Source: a phage. Taken from it: a DNA stretch of 64,000 bases. Position 1 is the stretch's first letter. Every line of letters starts with the position of its first letter. This document shows positions 4,440 to 63,071 of the stretch, one piece after another. Made by a program: the position numbers and the translations under genes. Location: sequence record PZ402304.1; one strand, given 5' to 3'. The notes beneath the pieces are model-generated. The model was not told the origin of the DNA and did no database searches. It saw only the letters and a program-made list of their open reading frames with translations.

Positions 4440-4931
4440 ATGTTTGTAGATGACGTAACTCGTGCCTTCGAATCAGGTGATTTCGCTCGCCCTAACCTGT
4501 TTGAAGTAGAAATCTCTTATCTTGGGCAAAACTTTAGCTTCCAGTGTCGTGCTACGGCTCTTCCTGCTGCGATCGTTGAAAAGGTTCCTGTTTCTTATAT
4601 GAACCGTAAAATTAACGTGGCCGGTGACCGTACATTCGATGATTGGACTATTACAGTAATGAACGATGATGCTCATAGCATTCGTCAGAAATTTGTTGAT
4701 TGGCAAGGTATTGCAGCAGGACAAGGTAATGAAATTACCGGTGGTAAACCTGCTGAATATAAAAAGACTGCTATCGTTCGTCAATTTGCTCGTGATGCTA
4801 AAACTGTCACTAAAGAAGTTGAAATTGTTGGCTTGTGGCCTACTAACGTTGGTGAAGTATCTCTTGACTGGGACAGCAATAACGAGATTGAAACATTCGA
4901 AGTAACTCTTGCTCTTGATTGGTGGGAATAA
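4440..4931 (+). CDS. 19: tail tube protein gp19
   Basis: 163 aa, T4 gp19-like. Confidence 0.95.
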   Translation: MFVDDVTRAFESGDFARPNLFEVEISYLGQNFSFQCRATALPAAIVEKVPVSYMNRKINVAGDRTFDDWTITVMNDDAHSIRQKFVDWQGIAAGQGNEITGGKPAEYKKTAIVRQFARDAKTVTKEVEIVGLWPTNVGEVSLDWDSNNEIETFEVTLALDWWE

Positions 4932-56398: not shown

Positions 56399-57523
56399 AT
56401 GGAAAAATTTATGGCAAGGTTTGGACAGGGATACGTCCAAACGCCGTTTTTATCGGAAAGCAATTCAGTTAGATTTAAGCTAAGTATAGCGGGTTCATGC
56501 CCGCTTTCAACAACTAATCCGTATATTTTGTTCCAAAACGAGCCTTTAGGGTTGCAGTCTTTTGGTATTGGACTAAATGTTAGGGTGATAAATCCGGAAA
56601 ATGGAACTATAGTTGATAGTAAATTATACAATTTTGCGCCTACAAATAATGCAACTTCAGCTGCATTTATTTCGTTTGTTAATACATACGCAGATAATTT
56701 CATTTTCGCATTTATTTCTAATAACAAATTTAATTTGCCGCCGGAAATAATTGAATGGTTTAAAGCTGCTGGGAGTTCAGTTATACCGTCAATTGAAGTT
56801 GCTAGTCTTGTTGATATTTCATATTCAGCGTTTTATGTTTCAGGTAAAAATACTATTGCATTAGAACACATAAAATACAGTAATAAGAAAACAATTTCTG
56901 ATTACGCAACTCCATTAGATATTGTATATGACTCTATTGCTGATATAGGTGCTACCGGCTATCCTAGACGTACATATGAAGCTCTAGAAACGTTTTTATC
57001 TCATGTTGGAAGAACTAACAATGAAATAAAAAGGATGCCTACATCATCCCTTGTTACTCCTATCGCAAACTATGGATTAAAGCCTACAGATTTTCTTTAT
57101 TTGAAATTTCAATTAATGGCTGATGAAGAATTATTAGAGGAAGGAACCACAAGACTTTCAATTCGTTTCTTTAAGTCTCCATCTAGCTCTCCTATATCAT
57201 CTAAAGATATAAACTTTGATGGAACTGCCGGGGAGTGGAAGCTATATGAAGAATACGTTGAAATACCAGCTGAAGCTGATGGCTTTACAGTATATTGTTA
57301 CCGTACGGCCTCAGTCGGTCAAGGTGGACTAAGAAATGTTATTTTCACTGAAGTATCATGTAACGGAAGTATAGCAAAACCAGCCGAGTTTGGTATAAAC
57401 GGTATTCGTGTTAATTACATTGATGAATCATTAACCGGTAATGATATAATGGACTTGCCTACTCAGTTATCTAACGACACAGGTAAGGTATTTGGGCAGG
57501 AATTTAAAGAGTACACAGAATAA
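56399..57523 (+). CDS. 35: long tail fibre hinge connector gp35
   Basis: 374 aa, T4 gp35 size and position. Confidence 0.85.
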   Translation: MEKFMARFGQGYVQTPFLSESNSVRFKLSIAGSCPLSTTNPYILFQNEPLGLQSFGIGLNVRVINPENGTIVDSKLYNFAPTNNATSAAFISFVNTYADNFIFAFISNNKFNLPPEIIEWFKAAGSSVIPSIEVASLVDISYSAFYVSGKNTIALEHIKYSNKKTISDYATPLDIVYDSIADIGATGYPRRTYEALETFLSHVGRTNNEIKRMPTSSLVTPIANYGLKPTDFLYLKFQLMADEELLEEGTTRLSIRFFKSPSSSPISSKDINFDGTAGEWKLYEEYVEIPAEADGFTVYCYRTASVGQGGLRNVIFTEVSCNGSIAKPAEFGINGIRVNYIDESLTGNDIMDLPTQLSNDTGKVFGQEFKEYTE

Positions 57524-57548: not shown

Positions 57549-57556
57549 TATAAATA
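57549..57556 (+). promoter_or_regulatory. late promoter TATAAATA upstream of gene 36
   Basis: exact TATAAATA followed by AAGGAG RBS. Confidence 0.55.
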
Positions 57557-57582: not shown

Positions 57583-58239
57583 ATGGCCGATTTAAAAGCC
57601 GGAAGTACAGTTGGTGGTTCCGTCATATGGCATCAAGGCAATTTTCCTTTAATGCCAGCTGGCGATGACATCCTATATAAAACATTTAAATTATACACCG
57701 AATATAACAAGCCAAAAGCGGCTGATAACGATTTCGTATCTAAAGCAAACGGTGGGACATATCTCAAAAAGGTAATCTTTAACGAAGGTGTTGCAGTCAA
57801 AACAACAGATGACCAAACGAATGGTATTTTTTCTGGTGGTGGTGACGCCGCGACATTCGACCAAACAAACATGGATATTGTTTCGTGGTATGGTATTGGG
57901 TTTAAATCATCTCAAGGTACAGGTGAAAGAACTGTTGTAATTGATACTCGCACCGGTAATATAAGTTCTAAAGGCGTTATTGAAGCATCTCAATTCAGAG
58001 CCACAACGTTAGCACCTTTAAATAATTACGACCTTACTCGCAAAGATTATGTTGATAGTCAAATAAATACAGTTAATGCTAATGCAAACAGTCGTGTACT
58101 CCGTTCAGGAGATACGATGACCGGCGCGCTAACCGCCCCAAACTTTTTCTCACAGAATCCTGCATCTCAACCCTCGCATGTTCCACGATTTGACCAAATT
58201 GTTATTAAGGATTCTGTTCAAGATTTCGGCTATTATTAA
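57583..58239 (+). CDS. 36: long tail fibre distal connector gp36
   Basis: 218 aa, T4 gp36 size and position. Confidence 0.85.
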   Translation: MADLKAGSTVGGSVIWHQGNFPLMPAGDDILYKTFKLYTEYNKPKAADNDFVSKANGGTYLKKVIFNEGVAVKTTDDQTNGIFSGGGDAATFDQTNMDIVSWYGIGFKSSQGTGERTVVIDTRTGNISSKGVIEASQFRATTLAPLNNYDLTRKDYVDSQINTVNANANSRVLRSGDTMTGALTAPNFFSQNPASQPSHVPRFDQIVIKDSVQDFGYY

Positions 58240-58247
58240 GAGGACTT

Positions 58248-61200
58248 ATGGCTACTTTAAAACAAATACAATTTAAAAGAAGCAAAACTGCAGGAGCACG
58301 TCCTGCTGCTTCAGTATTAGCCGAAGGTGAATTGGCTATAAACTTAAAAGACCGTGTACTTTTTACTAAAGATGACCAAGGAAATATTATTGATCTGGGT
58401 TTTGCTAAAGGTGGTAGTATTGACGGGAATGTTATTCATACTGGCAATTATAACCAAACTGGCGATTATACTTTAAATGGAACCTTCACTCAGACAGGTA
58501 ATTTTAATTTAACTGGTATTGCTCGAGTAACTCGCGATATTATTGCCGCCGGGCAGATTATGACCGAAGGCGGAGAACTTATTACAAAAAGTTCAGGTAC
58601 ATCACATGTTCGTTTTTTCGATGGCAATAGCCGCGAACGTGGCATTATCTTTTCGCCAAATAATGCTGGAGCGACCACTCAGGTAGTTAATATTCGCGTA
58701 CAAGATTATGCCGCTGATAGCGAAAGCATTTATGCGTTTTCAGGCAACGGTGTATTTTCTTCACCTGAAGTATCGGCACGGAAATCTATTTCGTCTCCAC
58801 AAATTCTGACCAATAAAGTTATTACAGATGGGAAGAAGACAGGCGATTATGATATCTATTCATTAGCAAATAACACTCCATTGGCAGAAAGCGAAACGGC
58901 TATTAACCACCTCCGCGTTATGCGAAATGCCGTAGGATCTGGTATATTCCATGAAGTTAAAGATAACTACGGGATAACCTGGTACGCCGGTGACGGGTTA
59001 GATGCCTATCTTTGGTCGTTTACCTGGTCCGGTGGATTGAAAGCAGGCCATTCTGTTTCTATAGGTCTTCCAGGTGGCTCTAAAGGATACTCTGAACTAG
59101 GGACTGCTTCGATTGCTCTTGGTGATAATGATACCGGATTTAAATGGCATCAGGACGGATATTTTCATACAGTAAACAACGGAACAAGAACTTTCGTTTA
59201 CGGTCCTGCGGAAACACAAAGCCTTAGAAAAATGGTTATGGGTTATTCTCCGGATGGGATTCTTATGACAACGCCACCGACAGAAAACTATGCATTAGCC
59301 ACTGTTGTTACTTACCATGATAATAACGCGTTTGGAGATGGTCAGACTCTTTTGGGATATTATCAAGGCGGTAACTATCATCATTATTTCCGCGGCAAGG
59401 GTACCACAAACATTAATACTCATGGCGGTTTGTTAGTTACTCCAGGTAATATTGATGTTATTGGCGGTTCTGTTAATATTGATGGTCGTAATAATGCTTC
59501 TACGCTGATGTTTAGAGGTAACACAACTGGTAGCAGTTCAGTTGATAATATGACAATTTCTGTATGGGGTAATACGTTTACTAATCCTAGTGTAGGTAAT
59601 CGTAAAAATGTCATGGAAATTTCTGACGCAACTAGCTGGATGAGTTATATTCAAAGACTTACTACCGGTGAAGTAGAAATGAACGTCAATGGTTCATTTG
59701 AATCATCCGGTGTTACTGCTGGAAATAGAGGAGTTCACACAACAGGCGAAATTTCATCTGGAGCAGTTAATGCGCTTCGCATTTGGAATGCAGATTATGG
59801 AGCCATTTTTAGACGTTCAGAAGGCAGTCTTCATATTATTCCAACTGCTTACGGTGAAGGTAAACATGGCGATATCGGTCCACTTCGCCCGTTTAGTATG
59901 GCTTTAGATACTGGTAAAGTTACTATTCCAGATTTACAATCAAGTTACAATACGTTTGCTGCTAACGGTTATATTAAATTTGTTGGTCATGGAGCGGGTG
60001 CCGGCGGTTATGACATTCAATATGTTCAAGCAGCTCCTATTTTCCAGGAAATTGATGATGATGCTATAAGCAAATATTATCCTATTGTTAAACAGAAGTT
60101 TTTAAACGGCAAAGCTGTTTGGTCTTTAGGTACTGAAATTAATTCGGGTACATTCGTTATTCATCATCTGAAAGAAGATGGTTCACAAGGCCATACGTCT
60201 CGTTTTAATCAAGACGGTACTGTTAACTTCCCAGATAACGTTTCTGTCGGCGGTGGTGAAGCTACTATTGCTCGCAATGGTAATATCTGGTCTGATATCT
60301 GGAAAACGTTTACTTCAGCAGGCGACGTAACTAATATTCGCGATGCAATAGCTACTCGTGTTGCTAAAGAAGGCGATACGATGACCGGCACTCTTTGGAT
60401 TAATAAAGATGCTGCCGGAATAGTTCTTAATCCTCCTTTGGCTAGTGATTCGTCATTTATTCGTTCTGATACGGCCGGGGCCAATAATTGGTATATTGGT
60501 AAAGGCGGTGCCGACAATGGTCTAGGTTTTTACAGTTACATTACACAAGGCGGTGTATACATAACAAATAACGGCGAAATATCGCTTTCTCCTCAAGGTC
60601 AAGGAACATTTAATTTTAATAGAGACCGCCTTCATATAAACGGTACACAATGGGTTGCGCATAAATCTGGCGCCTGGGGTGACCAATGGGGTTTAGAAGC
60701 TCCTATATTTGTAGATTTTGGATCCGTCAGCAATGACTGCTATTATCCTATTATTAAAGGAAAATCTGGTATTACTAACGAAGGATATTTTTCCGGCGTA
60801 GATTTTGGTATGCGACGCATTACTAATAACTGGGCACAAGGTATTATTCGTGTAGGTAACCAGGAAAATGGCCATGACCCACAAGCTATATATGAATTCC
60901 ATCATAACGGCACTTTTTATTCTCCTAACATGGTTAAAACCGGCGCAAGACTATCAGCTGGTGGTGGTGACCCGGTATGGACTGGACCATGTCTTGTTAT
61001 TGGTGATAATGACACTGGCTTAGTATGGGGTGGCGACGGTCGAATAAATATGGTTGCCAATGGTATACATATTGCAAACTGGGGAGCAGGCTATCAATCT
61101 CATCCTGGGCTTTGGGATTCAACCGGCGCTTTTTGGACAGAAACTGGAAGAGCTATCGTTTCTCATGGGCATCTCGTTCAGGCAAATGATAGTTATTCAA

Positions 61201-61562
61201 CGTATGTCCGTGATGTTTATGTCCGTTCTGATATTCGCGTTAAAAAAGACCTTGTTAAATTTGAAAATGCTTCTCAGAAGCTTTCTAAAATTAACGGTTA
61301 CACTTATATGCAGAAGCGAGGCCTAGATGAAGAAGGCAATCAGAAATGGGAACCTAACGCAGGTTTGATAGCTCAAGAAGTTCAAGCTATTTTACCTGAA
61401 TTAGTTGAAGGTGACACTGATGGCGAAGCTTTACTTCGTTTGAACTATAACGGTGTAATTGGTTTAAATACAGCTGCAATCAATGAGCATACTGCAGAAA
61501 TTGCAGAACTTAAGTCAGAGATTGAAGAGCTTAAAAAATTAGTTAAATCATTGTTAAAATAA
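58248..61562 (+). CDS. 37: long tail fibre distal subunit gp37 with C-terminal intramolecular chaperone-like domain
   Basis: 1104 aa; C-terminal SDIRVKKD...NYNGVIGL...coiled-coil resembles self-cleaving chaperone domains. Confidence 0.9.
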   Translation: MATLKQIQFKRSKTAGARPAASVLAEGELAINLKDRVLFTKDDQGNIIDLGFAKGGSIDGNVIHTGNYNQTGDYTLNGTFTQTGNFNLTGIARVTRDIIAAGQIMTEGGELITKSSGTSHVRFFDGNSRERGIIFSPNNAGATTQVVNIRVQDYAADSESIYAFSGNGVFSSPEVSARKSISSPQILTNKVITDGKKTGDYDIYSLANNTPLAESETAINHLRVMRNAVGSGIFHEVKDNYGITWYAGDGLDAYLWSFTWSGGLKAGHSVSIGLPGGSKGYSELGTASIALGDNDTGFKWHQDGYFHTVNNGTRTFVYGPAETQSLRKMVMGYSPDGILMTTPPTENYALATVVTYHDNNAFGDGQTLLGYYQGGNYHHYFRGKGTTNINTHGGLLVTPGNIDVIGGSVNIDGRNNASTLMFRGNTTGSSSVDNMTISVWGNTFTNPSVGNRKNVMEISDATSWMSYIQRLTTGEVEMNVNGSFESSGVTAGNRGVHTTGEISSGAVNALRIWNADYGAIFRRSEGSLHIIPTAYGEGKHGDIGPLRPFSMALDTGKVTIPDLQSSYNTFAANGYIKFVGHGAGAGGYDIQYVQAAPIFQEIDDDAISKYYPIVKQKFLNGKAVWSLGTEINSGTFVIHHLKEDGSQGHTSRFNQDGTVNFPDNVSVGGGEATIARNGNIWSDIWKTFTSAGDVTNIRDAIATRVAKEGDTMTGTLWINKDAAGIVLNPPLASDSSFIRSDTAGANNWYIGKGGADNGLGFYSYITQGGVYITNNGEISLSPQGQGTFNFNRDRLHINGTQWVAHKSGAWGDQWGLEAPIFVDFGSVSNDCYYPIIKGKSGITNEGYFSGVDFGMRRITNNWAQGIIRVGNQENGHDPQAIYEFHHNGTFYSPNMVKTGARLSAGGGDPVWTGPCLVIGDNDTGLVWGGDGRINMVANGIHIANWGAGYQSHPGLWDSTGAFWTETGRAIVSHGHLVQANDSYSTYVRDVYVRSDIRVKKDLVKFENASQKLSKINGYTYMQKRGLDEEGNQKWEPNAGLIAQEVQAILPELVEGDTDGEALLRLNYNGVIGLNTAAINEHTAEIAELKSEIEELKKLVKSLLK

Positions 61563-61592
61563 TAGAGGGGCTTCGGCCCCTTGGAGGTTTAT

Positions 61593-62366
61593 ATGGCAGT
61601 TGAAGGACCGTGGGTAGGATGGTCTGCAAGGGTACAGACTGGAGATCCTTGGATGGGTGGTGCCGCACAGAGATTAAGAATGGGCATTCCGTTCTGGATG
61701 AGTAATATGATAGGTCGATCTGTTGAAGTAATTCACACACTTGGAGCAGACCATAACTTCAATGGTCAATGGTTCCGAGATAGATGTTTTGAGGCAGGCA
61801 GTGCACCTATAGTGTTTAATATCACTGGAAATTTAGTATCATATAGTAAAGATGTTCCATTATTCTTTATGTATGGCGATACACCAAATGAATATGTTAC
61901 TTTGAATATTCATGGTGGTGTTCATATGTGGGGCCGAGGTGGTAATGGTAGCGTAAATGGAAGCCCAGGCACAAATGGCGGCGATGTAATCCAAAATGAT
62001 ATCGGCGGAAGACTTCGTATTTGGAACTACGGCGTTATTGCATCAGGTGGCGGTGGCGGTGGTGCAGTGTCGTTAAAGAATAGCTGGCCTGCAAATTCTA
62101 CAGCAGGTGGCGGTGGTGGTAGACCATTTGGCATCGGCGGTGGCGGCGTTAATTGGCCTGGTGGTAATGCTAGTTATGACGGTCCAGGTGGTGGTGGTGG
62201 TACAAGTCAATATGGCGGTGGGCGTGGCGGTGATGCTGGAGGTTGGGGCGGAGATGGATGGGGTAAGAACTTGTCCAGATCTGGCGGTGGTGCTCCTGGC
62301 AGAGCAGTATTCGGAAGTTCACCGTCATGGGGTGCTACAGGCACAATCTACGGCTCCTGGATTTAA
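61593..62366 (+). CDS. 38: gp38-type receptor-recognising adhesin (T2-like, glycine-rich motifs)
   Basis: 257 aa from the ATG after GGAGG RBS; multiple poly-Gly motifs flanking variable segments. Confidence 0.8.
62040..62300 (+). repeat. GGT/GGC glycine-codon microrepeats within gene 38
   Basis: runs of ggtggcggtggc / ggtggtggtggt encoding the poly-Gly motifs; approximate bounds. Confidence 0.7.
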
Positions 62367-62384
62367 ACGATAATACCTCTCAAT

Positions 62385-62392
62385 TATAAATA
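62385..62392 (+). promoter_or_regulatory. late promoter TATAAATA upstream of holin gene t
   Basis: exact TATAAATA followed by GGGAGG RBS. Confidence 0.55.
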
Positions 62393-62411: not shown

Positions 62412-63071
62412 ATGGCAGCACCAAAAGTATCATTTTCGCCTAGTGATATTTTATTTGGGTTGCTAGACCGCATTTTCAAAGATAACGCCTCTGGAAATAT
62501 TCTTATTTCAAGAGTTGCTGTTGTAGTTCTTTTGTTCCTAATGGCACTAATATGGTACAAAGGGAATATTTTTATGGATTATTACGTGAGGTCTAAATAT
62601 GATACTTACACAGAAGTAATTCAAAAAGAAAGAAATACACGATTTGAATCTGCGGCTTTAGAGCAACTACAAATAGTCCACGTCACATCAAGGGCGGATT
62701 TTAGTTCGGTGTATTCTTTCAGACCTAAAAATCTAAATTATTTCGTCGACCTTATTGCGTATGAAGGTAAGTTACCTAGCACAGTAACTGAAAAATCTAT
62801 GGGAGGATTTCCTGTTGATAAAACGACAGCAGAATATTCAGTCCATTTAAGTGGACTTCACTTTACTTCTAAAACAGATTTTGCTTTCTTACCTACCAAA
62901 TCAAAAACTCCGGAACTGGCGTATATGTATAGTTGTCCTTACTTCAATTTGGATAACATATATGCTGGAACTGTTTCTATGTATTGGTATAAGGGGTCGG
63001 ATGTGTTAAATGAAGAACGCTTGGCTGCAATATGCAACCAAGCAGCAAGGATATTAGGGCGGGCTAAATAA
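62412..63071 (+). CDS. t: holin T
   Basis: 219 aa from MAAPKVSF; single N-terminal TMD then large periplasmic domain; T4 T-like. Confidence 0.9.
   Translation: MAAPKVSFSPSDILFGLLDRIFKDNASGNILISRVAVVVLLFLMALIWYKGNIFMDYYVRSKYDTYTEVIQKERNTRFESAALEQLQIVHVTSRADFSSVYSFRPKNLNYFVDLIAYEGKLPSTVTEKSMGGFPVDKTTAEYSVHLSGLHFTSKTDFAFLPTKSKTPELAYMYSCPYFNLDNIYAGTVSMYWYKGSDVLNEERLAAICNQAARILGRAK

Follow-up and report, generated by a model that had tools for sequence, protein, structure and literature searches.

Gene 38 and its neighbourhood

The DNA analysed here, a 64,000-nucleotide stretch of sequence record PZ402304.1 (hereafter the window), is from a T-even phage of the RB69-like (Mosigvirus) type and carries its tail fibre and holin genes in the order gp36-gp37-gp38-t (Table 1). 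Gene 38 is an intact reading frame at the coordinates originally given, running from ATG 61593 to TAA 62364-62366; it starts 31 nt past the gp37 stop and has a GGAGG ribosome-binding site at 61584-61588. A TTG at 61581, which opens a longer frame in the list of open reading frames, was rejected as the start on the basis of ribosome-binding-site spacing and homologue annotations: all gp38 homologues begin with MAV, and the same 774-nt gene is annotated in RB69, RB51, FL31, and MN04. Alternative-frame ORFs over the glycine-rich DNA (62107-62373 on the plus strand; 62207-62344 and 62170-62328 on the minus strand) were likewise rejected, as by-products of the GGN repeats. Gene t also lies downstream of gene 38 in RB69, RB51, FL31, MN04, T2, and T4. 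The hairpin in the spacer before gene 38 has a fold energy of -14.8 kcal/mol (z=-1.96), and a search of the entire window for Rfam families and tRNAs returned no matches.

Table 1. Features of the gene 37 to gene t region, with positions in the window
Feature	Position	Strand	Details and basis
Gene 37, distal long-tail-fibre subunit	58248..61562	+	1104 aa; Pfam Peptidase_S74 at aa 994-1053
Predicted gp37 intramolecular chaperone	61227..61559	+	aa 994-1104 (111 aa); predicted cleavage at motif DVYVR^SDIRVKK
GGGGC-UUCG-GCCCC hairpin	61567..61580	+	gp37-gp38 intercistronic spacer, directly 5' of the gp38 ribosome-binding site
Gene 38, gp38 long-tail-fibre tip adhesin	61593..62366	+	257 aa plus stop; ORF, Pfam, PDB, RB69 nt identity, AF2 model
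N-terminal attachment domain	61593..61712	+	aa 1-40; Gp38_N match, AF2 helices; predicted to insert into the tip of the gp37 trimer
Central beta-helix domain	61725..61931	+	about aa 45-113, again aa 131-150; AF2 strands, alignment to the S16 and PP01 beta-helix
C-terminal specificity domain	61932..62300	+	aa 114-236; glycine-rich motifs broken by hypervariable loops; 41% Gly
Loop A equivalent	61950..61967	+	aa 120-125 SVNGSP; from PP01 loop A, W119-I124
Loop B / HVS1 equivalent	62073..62102	+	aa 161-170; PP01 loop B, Q161-V170, same numbering
Loop C / HVS2 equivalent	62142..62156	+	aa 184-188 GGVNW; from PP01 loop C, N184-W189; identical to RB69
Loop D / HVS3	62193..62225	+	aa 201-211; version not found elsewhere; Q206 (CAA) kept
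Loop E / HVS4 equivalent	62250..62270	+	aa 220-226 GDGWGKN; from PP01 loop E, N225-S231
Gene t (holin)	62412..63071	+	Pfam Phage_holin_T, 5e-89; canonical 3' neighbour of gene 38

Assignment of gp38 to the adhesin family

Profile searches matched the protein to Pfam GP38 (PF05268; 272.6 bits, cut-off 25, profile positions 1-218 of 218) and, at aa 1-40, to Gp38_N (PF21721; 71.4 bits, cut-off 25, profile 1-40 of 40, 6e-20), and assigned it to PHROG 2056, 'tail fiber protein; host specificity' (4.9e-105). Its PDB sequence matches were gp38 of PP01 (9V85, 1.8e-75) and of S16 (6F45_D, 7e-47). Structure prediction, which had been suggested as a check, gave an AF2 model (pLDDT 91.1, pTM 0.82) that superposes on both structures at TM 0.85-0.91 (Foldseek against PDB: TM 0.91 and rmsd 1.5 Å for 9V85, TM 0.85-0.88 for 6F45_D), while no structure beyond gp38 adhesins was found in PDB at E<3. 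Judged by profile matches and modelled fold, the window gp38 belongs over its full length to the gp38 adhesin family (T2/T6/S16/PP01 type).

The product could instead be a T4-type chaperone of tail-fibre assembly that the virion lacks, as its gene name, its place after gene 37 and before gene t, and the entry 'distal long tail fiber assembly catalyst' in several GenBank records, RB69 (AY303349) included, would have it. The chance of this is close to nil. blastp against T4 gp38 (NP_049864) gave a best E of 1.3 over 9 residues; T4 gp38 belongs to PHROG 105 'tail fiber assembly', lacks a Pfam match, and has no family in common with the window protein; the fold matches adhesin structures only; and the window gp37 has its own intramolecular chaperone and a tip like that of S16 gp37, not T4 gp37. 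The chaperone identity is ruled out by these four lines (blastp, PHROG/Pfam, fold, and gp37 tip), and a note in the RB69 record itself names T2-subfamily gp38 as an adhesin. T4 gp38, which shares only gene name and map position and is otherwise unrelated in sequence and family, is absent from the virion, where gp37 itself binds the receptor (PMC6851490). The distinction matters for annotation, as many GenBank records, RB69's too, keep 'assembly catalyst', and for phage therapy, where host range is to be predicted or engineered.

The original prediction of a T2-like adhesin instead of a T4 chaperone is thus borne out by Pfam, PHROG, and blastp. Its label 'T2-type' is sound as a class name only; the closest match is RB69 gp38 (AAP76154; Mosigvirus RB69) at 94.6% amino acid identity, followed by RB51 (91.8%) and FL31 (91.1%); T2 gp38 itself is 50% identical. 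RB69, RB51/RB68, FL31, LF82-1, and MN04 share the 257-aa length, the position, the scaffold, and loop C with the window, which is set apart from the RB69 group by 14 substitutions from RB69, a unique loop D, and patches like alleles borne by Dhakavirus phages. T6 and M1 gp38 are 61% and 63% identical. The proposed alignment to T-even gp38 proteins showed that the family and the alternating architecture are shared with T2, T6, and M1, whereas every hypervariable segment differs; these three proteins also have a two-residue 'VP/IP' N-terminal insertion and end in GPRV or GSRV, against GSWI in the window. The classical receptors of this type are FadL/OmpF for T2, Tsx for T6, and OmpA for M1.

Domain architecture and the gp37 partner

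AF2 models the N-terminal domain as a helical bundle (H8-16, H21-27, H36-39) that carries tryptophans W7, W20, and W35, aligning to S16 W7, W20, and W36. W7 and W20 reach a conservation of 90% or more among 71 homologues, and over the whole domain the amino acids are those of RB69. The central beta-helix domain, with modelled strands at 46-50, 53-56, 73-77, 81-83, 91-93, 102-106, 111-113, 133-135, 141-145, and 148-150, also shows zero amino acid differences from RB69 (dN=0). DSSP classed the specificity domain as 'coil' though pLDDT is mostly >86, which is expected of polyglycine-II (PGII) helices. By the model and by analogy with S16 gp38, which has a PGII sandwich and three docking tryptophans (PMC6851490), the glycine-rich motifs of this domain would form a polyglycine-II sandwich.

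The C-terminal 190 aa of gp37 matched S16 gp37 (chain 6F45_A, 2e-46), the sole PDB sequence match at E<=0.001; the T4 gp37 tip was not matched among PDB sequences at that threshold. Homologous cleavage sites are known as DLNVS^SDRRIKK in S16 and DVYIR^SDGRLKI in fPS (PMC7917993). The S16 tip (PDB 6F45; gp38 48% identical over its full length) has the three tryptophans and the PGII glycine blocks in common with the window, and its gp37 likewise has a C-terminal intramolecular chaperone with a homologous cleavage motif. S16 differs in binding Salmonella OmpC, in loops unrelated to those of the window, and in a much shorter gp37 shaft (749 aa for gp37, against 1104 aa in the window). The PP01 gp38 receptor-binding domain (PDB 9V85; 64-65% identity) shares the beta-helix, the PGII sandwich, and the five distal loops, with the Gly motifs in register; none of its five loops has the sequence seen in the window, C, D, and E are of different length too, and its receptor is OmpC of E. 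coli O157, as opposed to the OmpF expected for the window.

I infer docking, cleavage, and receptor of the window gp38 by homology. As in S16 and PP01, the gp37 trimer would fold with the aid of its own C-terminal intramolecular chaperone, which would then autocleave between aa 993 and 994 and so expose the gp38 docking face. A single gp38 may dock on this tip through its N-terminal three-helix bundle together with W7, W20, and W35. The beta-helix would bear two extensions, in which the Gly-rich motifs build a rigid sandwich of polyglycine-II helices in three layers; the hypervariable segments between the motifs would be five loops at the distal end, in contact with a porin of the outer membrane. 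Taken together, gene 38 very probably encodes the RB69-like phage's monomeric adhesin, capping each long tail fibre by this docking and loop mechanism, with a mosaic gene and OmpF as the most likely receptor.

Glycine motifs and hypervariable segments

Glycine makes up 68 of the 257 residues (26%), its share rising from 13% over aa 1-115 to 37% over aa 116-257. Six runs are present: G6 at 152-157, G5 at 172-176, G4 at 182-185, G5 at 199-203, G3 at 208-210, and G3 at 231-233. The four runs of at least four residues exceed the expectation from composition when the whole protein is shuffled (P=0.005), and this excess is only marginal when the Gly-rich half is shuffled alone (P=0.07). Conservation is the real support for the motifs, and it is stronger than the shuffle tests: across the 71 homologues, down to 35% identity, the blocks G114-G117, G152-G157, G173-G176, G180, G210, and G212-213 are invariant or nearly so (entropy ~0), while aa 120-128, 158-171, 184-189, 200-209, and 220-231 are the most variable segments (2.3-3.3 bits). 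The predicted architecture of a 257-aa protein with poly-Gly stretches between variable segments agrees with the ORF, the Gly runs, and the conserved columns.

At the DNA level, glycine is encoded by 33 GGT, 23 GGC, 11 GGA, and 1 GGG codons. The predicted GGT/GGC repeats are present, as dispersed imperfect direct repeats of 12-20 nt of the GGTGGCGGTGG type (62046, 62106, 62181, 62217, 62282) and as short tandem arrays at 62046-62062 and 62187-62201.

Differences from RB69

The window gene shares 93.7% of its nucleotides with RB69 gene 38; in all, roughly 400 gp38 genes matched it at the DNA level. All 14 amino acid differences fall within aa 120-226, leaving aa 1-119 and 227-257 identical, and 13 of the 14 map to loops A, B, D, and E or their immediate flanks, where loops were mapped by sequence alignment to the PP01 loops, not by coordinates, and the stretches taken for loops D and E extend to neighbouring residues picked after the data had been seen. 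Loop A has residues other than those of RB69 at 120 and 124, and sits within a Dhakavirus-allele-like patch (gene nt 327-371). Loop B differs at 162, 166, 167, and 169, has an entropy of 2.8 bits and the lowest model confidence (pLDDT ~62), and carries an MN04/ABTNLsp5-like patch at gene nt 496-516. Loop E resembles MN04 and not RB69 at K225 and N226, as does the adjacent W218 (patch at gene nt 652-684).

In loop D, 12-13 of 30 nt differ from RB69, RB51, FL31, MN04, and LF82-1, and even the nearest alleles (ABTNLsp5, ESh24, IME281) differ at G203, Y207, and R211. A blastn search of the phage collection with the 101-nt loop-D region returned ABTNLsp5 as best match at 91.8% identity. The exact 29-nt core had 0 matches in IMG/VR and 0 in JGI metagenome contigs, the motif was not found among 117 homologue cluster representatives, and the exact gp38 protein was not found among 15 billion sequences. 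A single IMG/VR match to a loop-D 17-mer (L009) lies inside an unrelated 722-aa ORF and was dismissed as a chance match. This version of loop D is a previously unsampled allele in the collections searched, and is the only feature with some follow-up value; the gp38 as a whole is a previously unsampled but ordinary RB69-type allele, with nothing new in kind.

Mosaic origin of gene 38

Gene 38 is a fine-scale mosaic of an RB69-like backbone and short patches like the Dhakavirus-borne alleles of MN04, IME281, and ABTNLsp5. Parent-informative sites fall into far fewer runs than expected at random (P<5e-5 in four triplets), and the patches lie at aa 109-124, 166-172, 197-209, and 218-228, with approximate boundaries and with parents that are proxies. 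They cover loops A, B, D, and E, which would accordingly have been reassorted through recombination or gene conversion. Relative to RB69, dS is 0.30-0.42 in the specificity domain and 0.12 in the N-terminal part (2.5-3.5 times lower), which speaks for import of sequence and against point mutations under selection. Pairwise Nei-Gojobori dN/dS was below 1 throughout (0.04-0.31), giving no pairwise sign of diversifying selection.

It is very unlikely that the clustered differences from RB69 arose without allele exchange, by point mutation under selection on the loops or by localised error-prone repair, with the Gly-codon repeats uninvolved. Such an origin would fit a dN/dS against RB69 of 0.29 in the variable blocks and 0 in the N-terminal part, the three loop-D residues that lack a known donor, and the report by Trojet et al. 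of unexplained point mutations, some silent, in the HVSs of laboratory chimeras. It would not account for synonymous changes that cluster with amino acid replacements (one Thr-Ser is written ACA-AGT or ACT-TCC, for example), for the raised dS of the specificity domain, for the runs tests, or for the exact identity of every patch, over 20-45 nt, to alleles that other phages carry; the adjoining gp37, which is strongly mosaic relative to RB69 and FL31, switches its nearest relative block-wise too.

Allele exchange is the preferred origin, and the part played by the glycine codons in it is less clear-cut. The original prediction held the repeats to be likely recombination hot spots for host-range switching. 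The gene is indeed mosaic; on the other hand, only about 2-3 of the 6-8 deduced junction intervals lie in Gly-codon runs, a count that also suits an origin by point mutation. Junctions fall clearly in Gly-codon repeats at nt 517-524 and 628-656 only, and the others lie in non-Gly sequence. Because the parents are proxies and the domain is 41% Gly, the overlap of junctions and repeats neither confirms nor rejects hot spots. The gene is a natural illustration of two published ideas, that near-identical phages differ mainly in five receptor loops and that these loops are swapped in 20-45 nt blocks across genera (Mosigvirus, Tequatrovirus, and Dhakavirus).

Receptor prediction

[quoted passage not shown] This fits with experiments on close homologues, in which the variable segments set receptor specificity (PMC3157838, PMC12892980, bioRxiv 10.64898/2026.04.02.716166) and the loops of PP01 are the receptor contacts (PMC12892980), and with the placement of all differences from RB69 in the specificity domain.

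By analogy, the most likely receptor of the window gp38 would be OmpF, together with a requirement for the LPS core, because the allele belongs to the RB69/RB51/FL31 group. RB69, RB51, and SV76 require OmpF (PMC3157838), and RB69 also needs FhuA and LPS (Trojet et al., PMC3157838). FL31 shows OmpF/TolC dependence (PMC12032242), where the OmpF dependence amounts to only about 1 log. fPS-90 uses OmpF (PMC7917993), and its gp38 matches an HVS3 query at the identity of RB69 (81.6%). RB51 uses OmpF, and a Q206L substitution is reported to switch it from OmpF to OmpW (bioRxiv 10.64898/2026.04.02.716166). The window protein is 91-95% identical to this group and keeps Q206, and at the same time carries the 14 changes in the specificity domain, the unique loop D included. 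The OmpF assignment is the weakest step of the main reading.

A gp38-family adhesin with this new combination of loops may have moved off OmpF, to another porin such as OmpW or to particular OmpF variants only, which is unlikely. A single substitution at residue 206 of loop D is enough to move RB51 from OmpF to OmpW, and Tyr209 of PP01, which aligns to Q206, is essential. Three unique substitutions (G203, Y207, R211) surround Q206 in the window, in addition to the changes in loops A, B, and E; they are absent from the cluster representatives, phage records, and IMG/VR and JGI metagenome contigs searched, as is the exact protein from the collection of 15 billion sequences. Against such a shift, Q206 itself is kept (CAA), loop C and the whole scaffold are the same as in RB69, an intermediate allele (GGGGNTSQFGGGN) recurs in several phages from the same group, F207Y is conservative, and alleles grouped at 85-95% identity have until now proved to use a common receptor (PMC12032242).

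OmpF stays the preferred receptor. It is unlikely that the new loop-D allele, arisen by micro-recombination and local change near Q206, combines with loops A, B, and E of Dhakavirus type on the RB69 scaffold to give a specificity or host range unlike that of any characterised member of the RB69 group; if true, this would be a natural example of loop-by-loop reassortment yielding a new specificity.

gp38 belongs to the adhesin family, with the predicted fold of S16 and PP01 gp38

Family profiles and modelled fold both place gp38 among the receptor-binding adhesins. The Pfam family GP38 'Phage tail fibre adhesin Gp38' (PF05268) was matched over the whole profile at 272.6 bits and Gp38_N (PF21721) over residues 1-40 at 71.4 bits, and PHROGs assigned the protein to phrog_2056 ('tail fiber protein; host specificity', 4.9e-105). 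Only two PDB sequences matched: 9V85 (E=1.8e-75), the receptor-binding domain of PP01 gp38 (PMC12892980), and 6F45 chain D (E=7e-47), the full-length gp38 of Salmonella phage S16. A 71-sequence alignment served to build an AlphaFold2 model, which had a mean pLDDT of 91.1 and a pTM of 0.82, with residues 161-170 as its weakest block. Searching this model against the PDB with Foldseek gave a TM-score of 0.91 by target length to 9V85 (rmsd 1.5 Å, 65% identity) and of 0.85/0.88 to 6F45_D, and nothing else closer than E=3.3. DSSP assigned the glycine-rich stretches of the model to neither helix nor strand, yet they were confidently modelled, which is how polyglycine-II (PGII) helices, predicted here, appear to DSSP.

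The alternative, an assembly chaperone of the T4 type, was rejected. The original prediction had named the comparison with T4 gp38 (183 aa, NC_000866) as its refuting test, and blastp found no similarity (best E 1.3 over 9 residues); T4 gp38 hit no Pfam family, belongs to phrog_105 'tail fiber assembly', and has no family in common with the gp38 studied here. Calling the protein 'T2-type' holds as a class name and fails as a statement of nearest kinship, as T2 gp38 is 50% identical and RB69 gp38 94.6%. The other close relatives are MN04 (94.9%), LF82-1 (92.2%), RB51/RB68 (91.8%) and FL31 (91.1%), and the more distant ones M1 (63%), T6 (61%) and S16 (48%). In silico, the protein carries every feature of the adhesin family that sequence and model can show: profiles, an attachment domain with tryptophans, alternating glycine-rich motifs (GRMs) and hypervariable segments (HVSs), the fold, and a chaperone-bearing gp37 partner. 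The adhesin interpretation as a whole is supported by profiles, fold and partner, apart from its recombination hot-spot clause, which stands in part only.

If gp38 works like its homologues in the S16 and PP01 structures (PMC6851490; PMC12892980), gp37 would trimerise, after which its 111-residue C-terminal chaperone would cleave itself off. One gp38 monomer would then dock through a three-helix bundle (model helices 8-16, 21-27 and 36-39), inserting apical tryptophans, here predicted to be W7, W20 and W35, into three equivalent pockets. From a putative beta-helix core (~aa 45-113 and 131-150), two extensions (~114-130 and 151-236) would project, the glycine-rich motifs of both building a PGII sandwich and the hypervariable segments forming five distal receptor-binding loops, A to E.

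Features of the tail-fibre region and of gp38. Loop limits are the author's own mapping, in which published PP01 boundaries were carried over by HMMER alignment.
Feature	Window position	Strand	Protein position (aa)	Remark
gp35	56399-57523
Late-promoter motif	57549-57556	+		27 nt upstream of gp36
gp36	57583-58239
gp37	58248-61562	+		1104 aa
Peptidase_S74 domain			gp37 994-1053	Pfam
Predicted autocleavage motif	61212-61247		gp37 989-1000	DVYVR^SDIRVKK
Hairpin	61567-61580	+		GGGGC-UUCG-GCCCC
GGAGG	61584-61588			precedes gene 38
gp38	61593-62366	+		257 codons + TAA
Late-promoter motif	62385-62392	+		20 nt upstream of holin t start
holin t	62412-63071	+
Gly runs			gp38 152-157; 172-176; 182-185; 199-203; 208-210; 231-233	G6; G5; G4; G5; G3; G3
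Loop A			gp38 120-125
Loop B			gp38 161-170
Loop C			gp38 184-188
Loop D			gp38 ~203-207	HVS3 201-211 with flanks
Loop E			gp38 220-226

Gene order, gp37 partner and expression signals

The source is, judging by nucleotide alignment, an RB69-like phage: window 40000-64000 aligned over 97% of its length with RB69, the type species of Mosigvirus, at 95.9% identity. The order gp35-gp36-gp37-gp38-t is common to RB69, RB51, FL31, MN04, T2 and T4. The C-terminus of gp37 is a Peptidase_S74 intramolecular chaperone domain, and among PDB sequences its last 190 residues matched only S16 gp37 (6F45_A, 2e-46), leaving the T4 gp37 needle tip unmatched. The predicted autocleavage motif is homologous to the cleavage sites of S16 (DLNVS^SDRRIKK) and of the fPS phages (DVYIR^SDGRLKI; PMC7917993). 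Chaperone domain, S16-like tip and cleavage motif therefore point to a fibre architecture that requires a gp38 cap. Elsewhere in this region, the proximal hinge protein gp35 gave a weak match above threshold to Pfam ILEI 'Interleukin-like EMT inducer' (PF15711; 30.3 bits, cut-off 27, aa 58-131), which could reflect either a small beta-rich domain common to both or a borderline spurious hit. Across the whole 64-kb window, neither tRNA genes nor Rfam families were detected at threshold.

Gene 38 is an intact reading frame starting 31 nt past the gp37 stop. A mechanical ORF list had placed the start at a TTG at 61581; this was rejected, and the originally predicted coordinates are right, because all homologues begin MAV... 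and the annotations of RB69, RB51, RB68, FL31, MN04 and LF82-1 give this same gene of 774 nt. Alternative-frame ORFs of 45-88 aa cross the glycine-rich half of the gene (62107-62373 (+), 62170-62328 (-) and 62207-62344 (-)); these were dismissed as genes, being V/H/P/T-rich by-products of GGN codon repeats.

Past the gp37 stop, the 30-nt spacer that leads to the ribosome-binding site of gp38 holds a perfect tetraloop hairpin (-14.8 kcal/mol over a 46-nt context, z=-1.96), which looked terminator-like when the minus strand was scanned. In form it is like the stable C(UUCG)G hairpins between cistrons that were first described in T4 mRNAs, and it could serve to stabilise the mRNA or to govern translational coupling. 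The late-promoter consensus of T4, TATAAATA, was found upstream of gp36 and of holin t. Directly upstream of gp38 there was none, and gp38 is therefore probably co-transcribed with gp37.

Glycine motifs and mosaic structure

Glycine makes up 26% of gp38 (68 residues), rising from 13% in aa 1-115 to 37% in aa 116-257. Four runs of at least four glycines exceed the expectation from composition for the whole protein (P=0.005), an excess that becomes marginal (P=0.07) when the glycine-rich half is taken by itself. The real support for these motifs is their conservation: G114-G117, G152-G157, G173-G176, G180, G210 and G212-213 were invariant or nearly so among 71 homologues down to 35% identity. 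In the same alignment, the highest column entropies (2.3-3.3 bits) fell at 120-128, 158-171, 184-189, 200-209 and 220-231, so that conserved glycine columns alternate with high-entropy stretches, and glycine runs do separate variable segments, as first described. The predicted codon repeats are also present: the glycine codons, mainly GGT (33) and GGC (23), make dispersed imperfect direct repeats of 12-20 nt of the GGTGGCGGTGG type, and they also form short tandem arrays in two places. With this, every part of the original observation is confirmed. In the database, the gp38 entries of phages Bp7 and vB_EcoM_RZ leave the frame inside the glycine-rich region and end in unrelated sequence, reflecting errors made at GGN repeats in sequencing or assembly, or else real frameshift variants.

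Gene 38 proved to be a mosaic. Using RB69 against MN04, ABTNLsp5, IME281 or ESh24 as proxy parents, parent-informative sites fell into 19-27 runs among 105-155 sites, far fewer than random (no shuffle out of 20,000 gave so few). An RB69-like backbone carries patches of other alleles at aa 109-124, 166-172, 197-209 and 218-228, the segments bearing loops A, B, D and E. Against RB69, dS was 0.12 in the N-terminal part, rising to 0.30 for the specificity domain and to 0.42 for the variable blocks, and dN/dS stayed below 1 throughout; this pattern speaks for imported, diverged sequence more than for point mutation under selection.

The mosaic extends into gp37, where the nearest relative likewise switches block by block: identity to RB69 falls to 50-80% in 58563-59300 and 60294-61180, and at 60438-61183 FL31 is 96-100% identical over most of the stretch and RB69 only 50-89%. 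Of the flanking genes, gp36 and the holin share 98-100% identity with RB69, FL31 and LF82-1. A single gp38 allele group (85-95% nucleotide identity) spans Mosigvirus (RB69, FL31), Tequatrovirus (RB51, RB68, ESh24) and Dhakavirus (MN04, IME281, ABTNLsp5), which indicates, on allele distribution, that the adhesin has been exchanged across genus boundaries.

The suggestion that glycine codons are the hot spots was borne out in part: inferred junction intervals at nt 517-524 (GGCGGTGG) and 628-656 (GGGCGTGGCGGTGATGCTGGAGGTTGGGG) of the gene lie in glycine-rich motifs and five others (nt 298-326, 372-380, 493-495, 576-589 and 685-686) do not, the parents being proxies and the domain 41% glycine. 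This idea was already published (Tetart et al. 1996, 1998, as cited in PMC3157838). Among 14 laboratory chimeras no exchange occurred between GRM1 and GRM5 (PMC3157838), and a recombinant exchanged from HVS2 onwards has been recovered (bioRxiv 10.64898/2026.04.02.716166).

A new loop-D allele and the likely receptor

Across loop D, at nt 601-630 of gene 38, the sequence departs from RB69, RB51, FL31, MN04 and LF82-1 at 12-13 of 30 positions in each comparison, synonymous changes (such as ACA-AGT versus ACT-TCC for Thr-Ser) among them. The nearest loop-D alleles were those of Dhakavirus ABTNLsp5 and IME281 and of Tequatrovirus ESh24 (88-92% over ~100 nt), which differ in motif, reading GGGGN-TSQF-GGGN. 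The loop-D motif was absent from 117 homologue cluster representatives, IMG/VR and JGI metagenome contigs, and the exact protein from 15 billion collected sequences. The allele is new; the kind of protein is known. Work on gp38 architecture and host range reportedly began in the 1980s (Riede, Drexler and Henning); architecture, host-range role and PGII structure have all been published, as has the recombination hypothesis, up to structures and screens of 2026. A known gene has been read correctly here, and what is new is one single allele.

All 14 amino acid differences from RB69 gp38 fall within residues 120-226 (P=5e-6 versus a uniform spread). Thirteen of them are placed within the loops or next to them (A 120, 124; B 162, 166, 167, 169; D 201, 203, 207, 211; E 218, 225, 226), a count that takes in flanks around loops D and E picked after the data were seen. 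OmpF is the best, if not secure, receptor prediction from sequence kinship, because close gp38 relatives have OmpF evidence: RB69, RB51 and SV76 need OmpF, as well as FhuA and a full-length LPS core (PMC3157838), FL31 depends modestly on OmpF/TolC (PMC12032242), and genome-wide screens found RB51 OmpF-specific (bioRxiv 10.64898/2026.04.02.716166). The receptor of Yersinia phage fPS-90 is OmpF and LPS (PMC7917993), and its gp38 was 81.6% identical to a 101-nt HVS3 query, equal to RB69. Q206L in HVS3 is reported to be both required and enough for the RB51 switch from OmpF to OmpW (bioRxiv 10.64898/2026.04.02.716166); the present gp38 retains Q206 (CAA), but with G203, Y207 and R211 around it. 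The PP01 residue aligned with Q206 is Tyr209, which is essential. I consider it rather unlikely that the unsampled loop-D allele and the reassorted loops A, B and E change receptor specificity.

The OmpW specificity of RB68 has been ascribed to a T at nt 617 (Leu206; bioRxiv 10.64898/2026.04.02.716166). The GenBank record of RB68 (KM607004) reads CAA (Gln) at this codon (4616-4618), its gp38 protein being identical to that of RB51, and it seems that the sequence deposited is not that of the laboratory stock.
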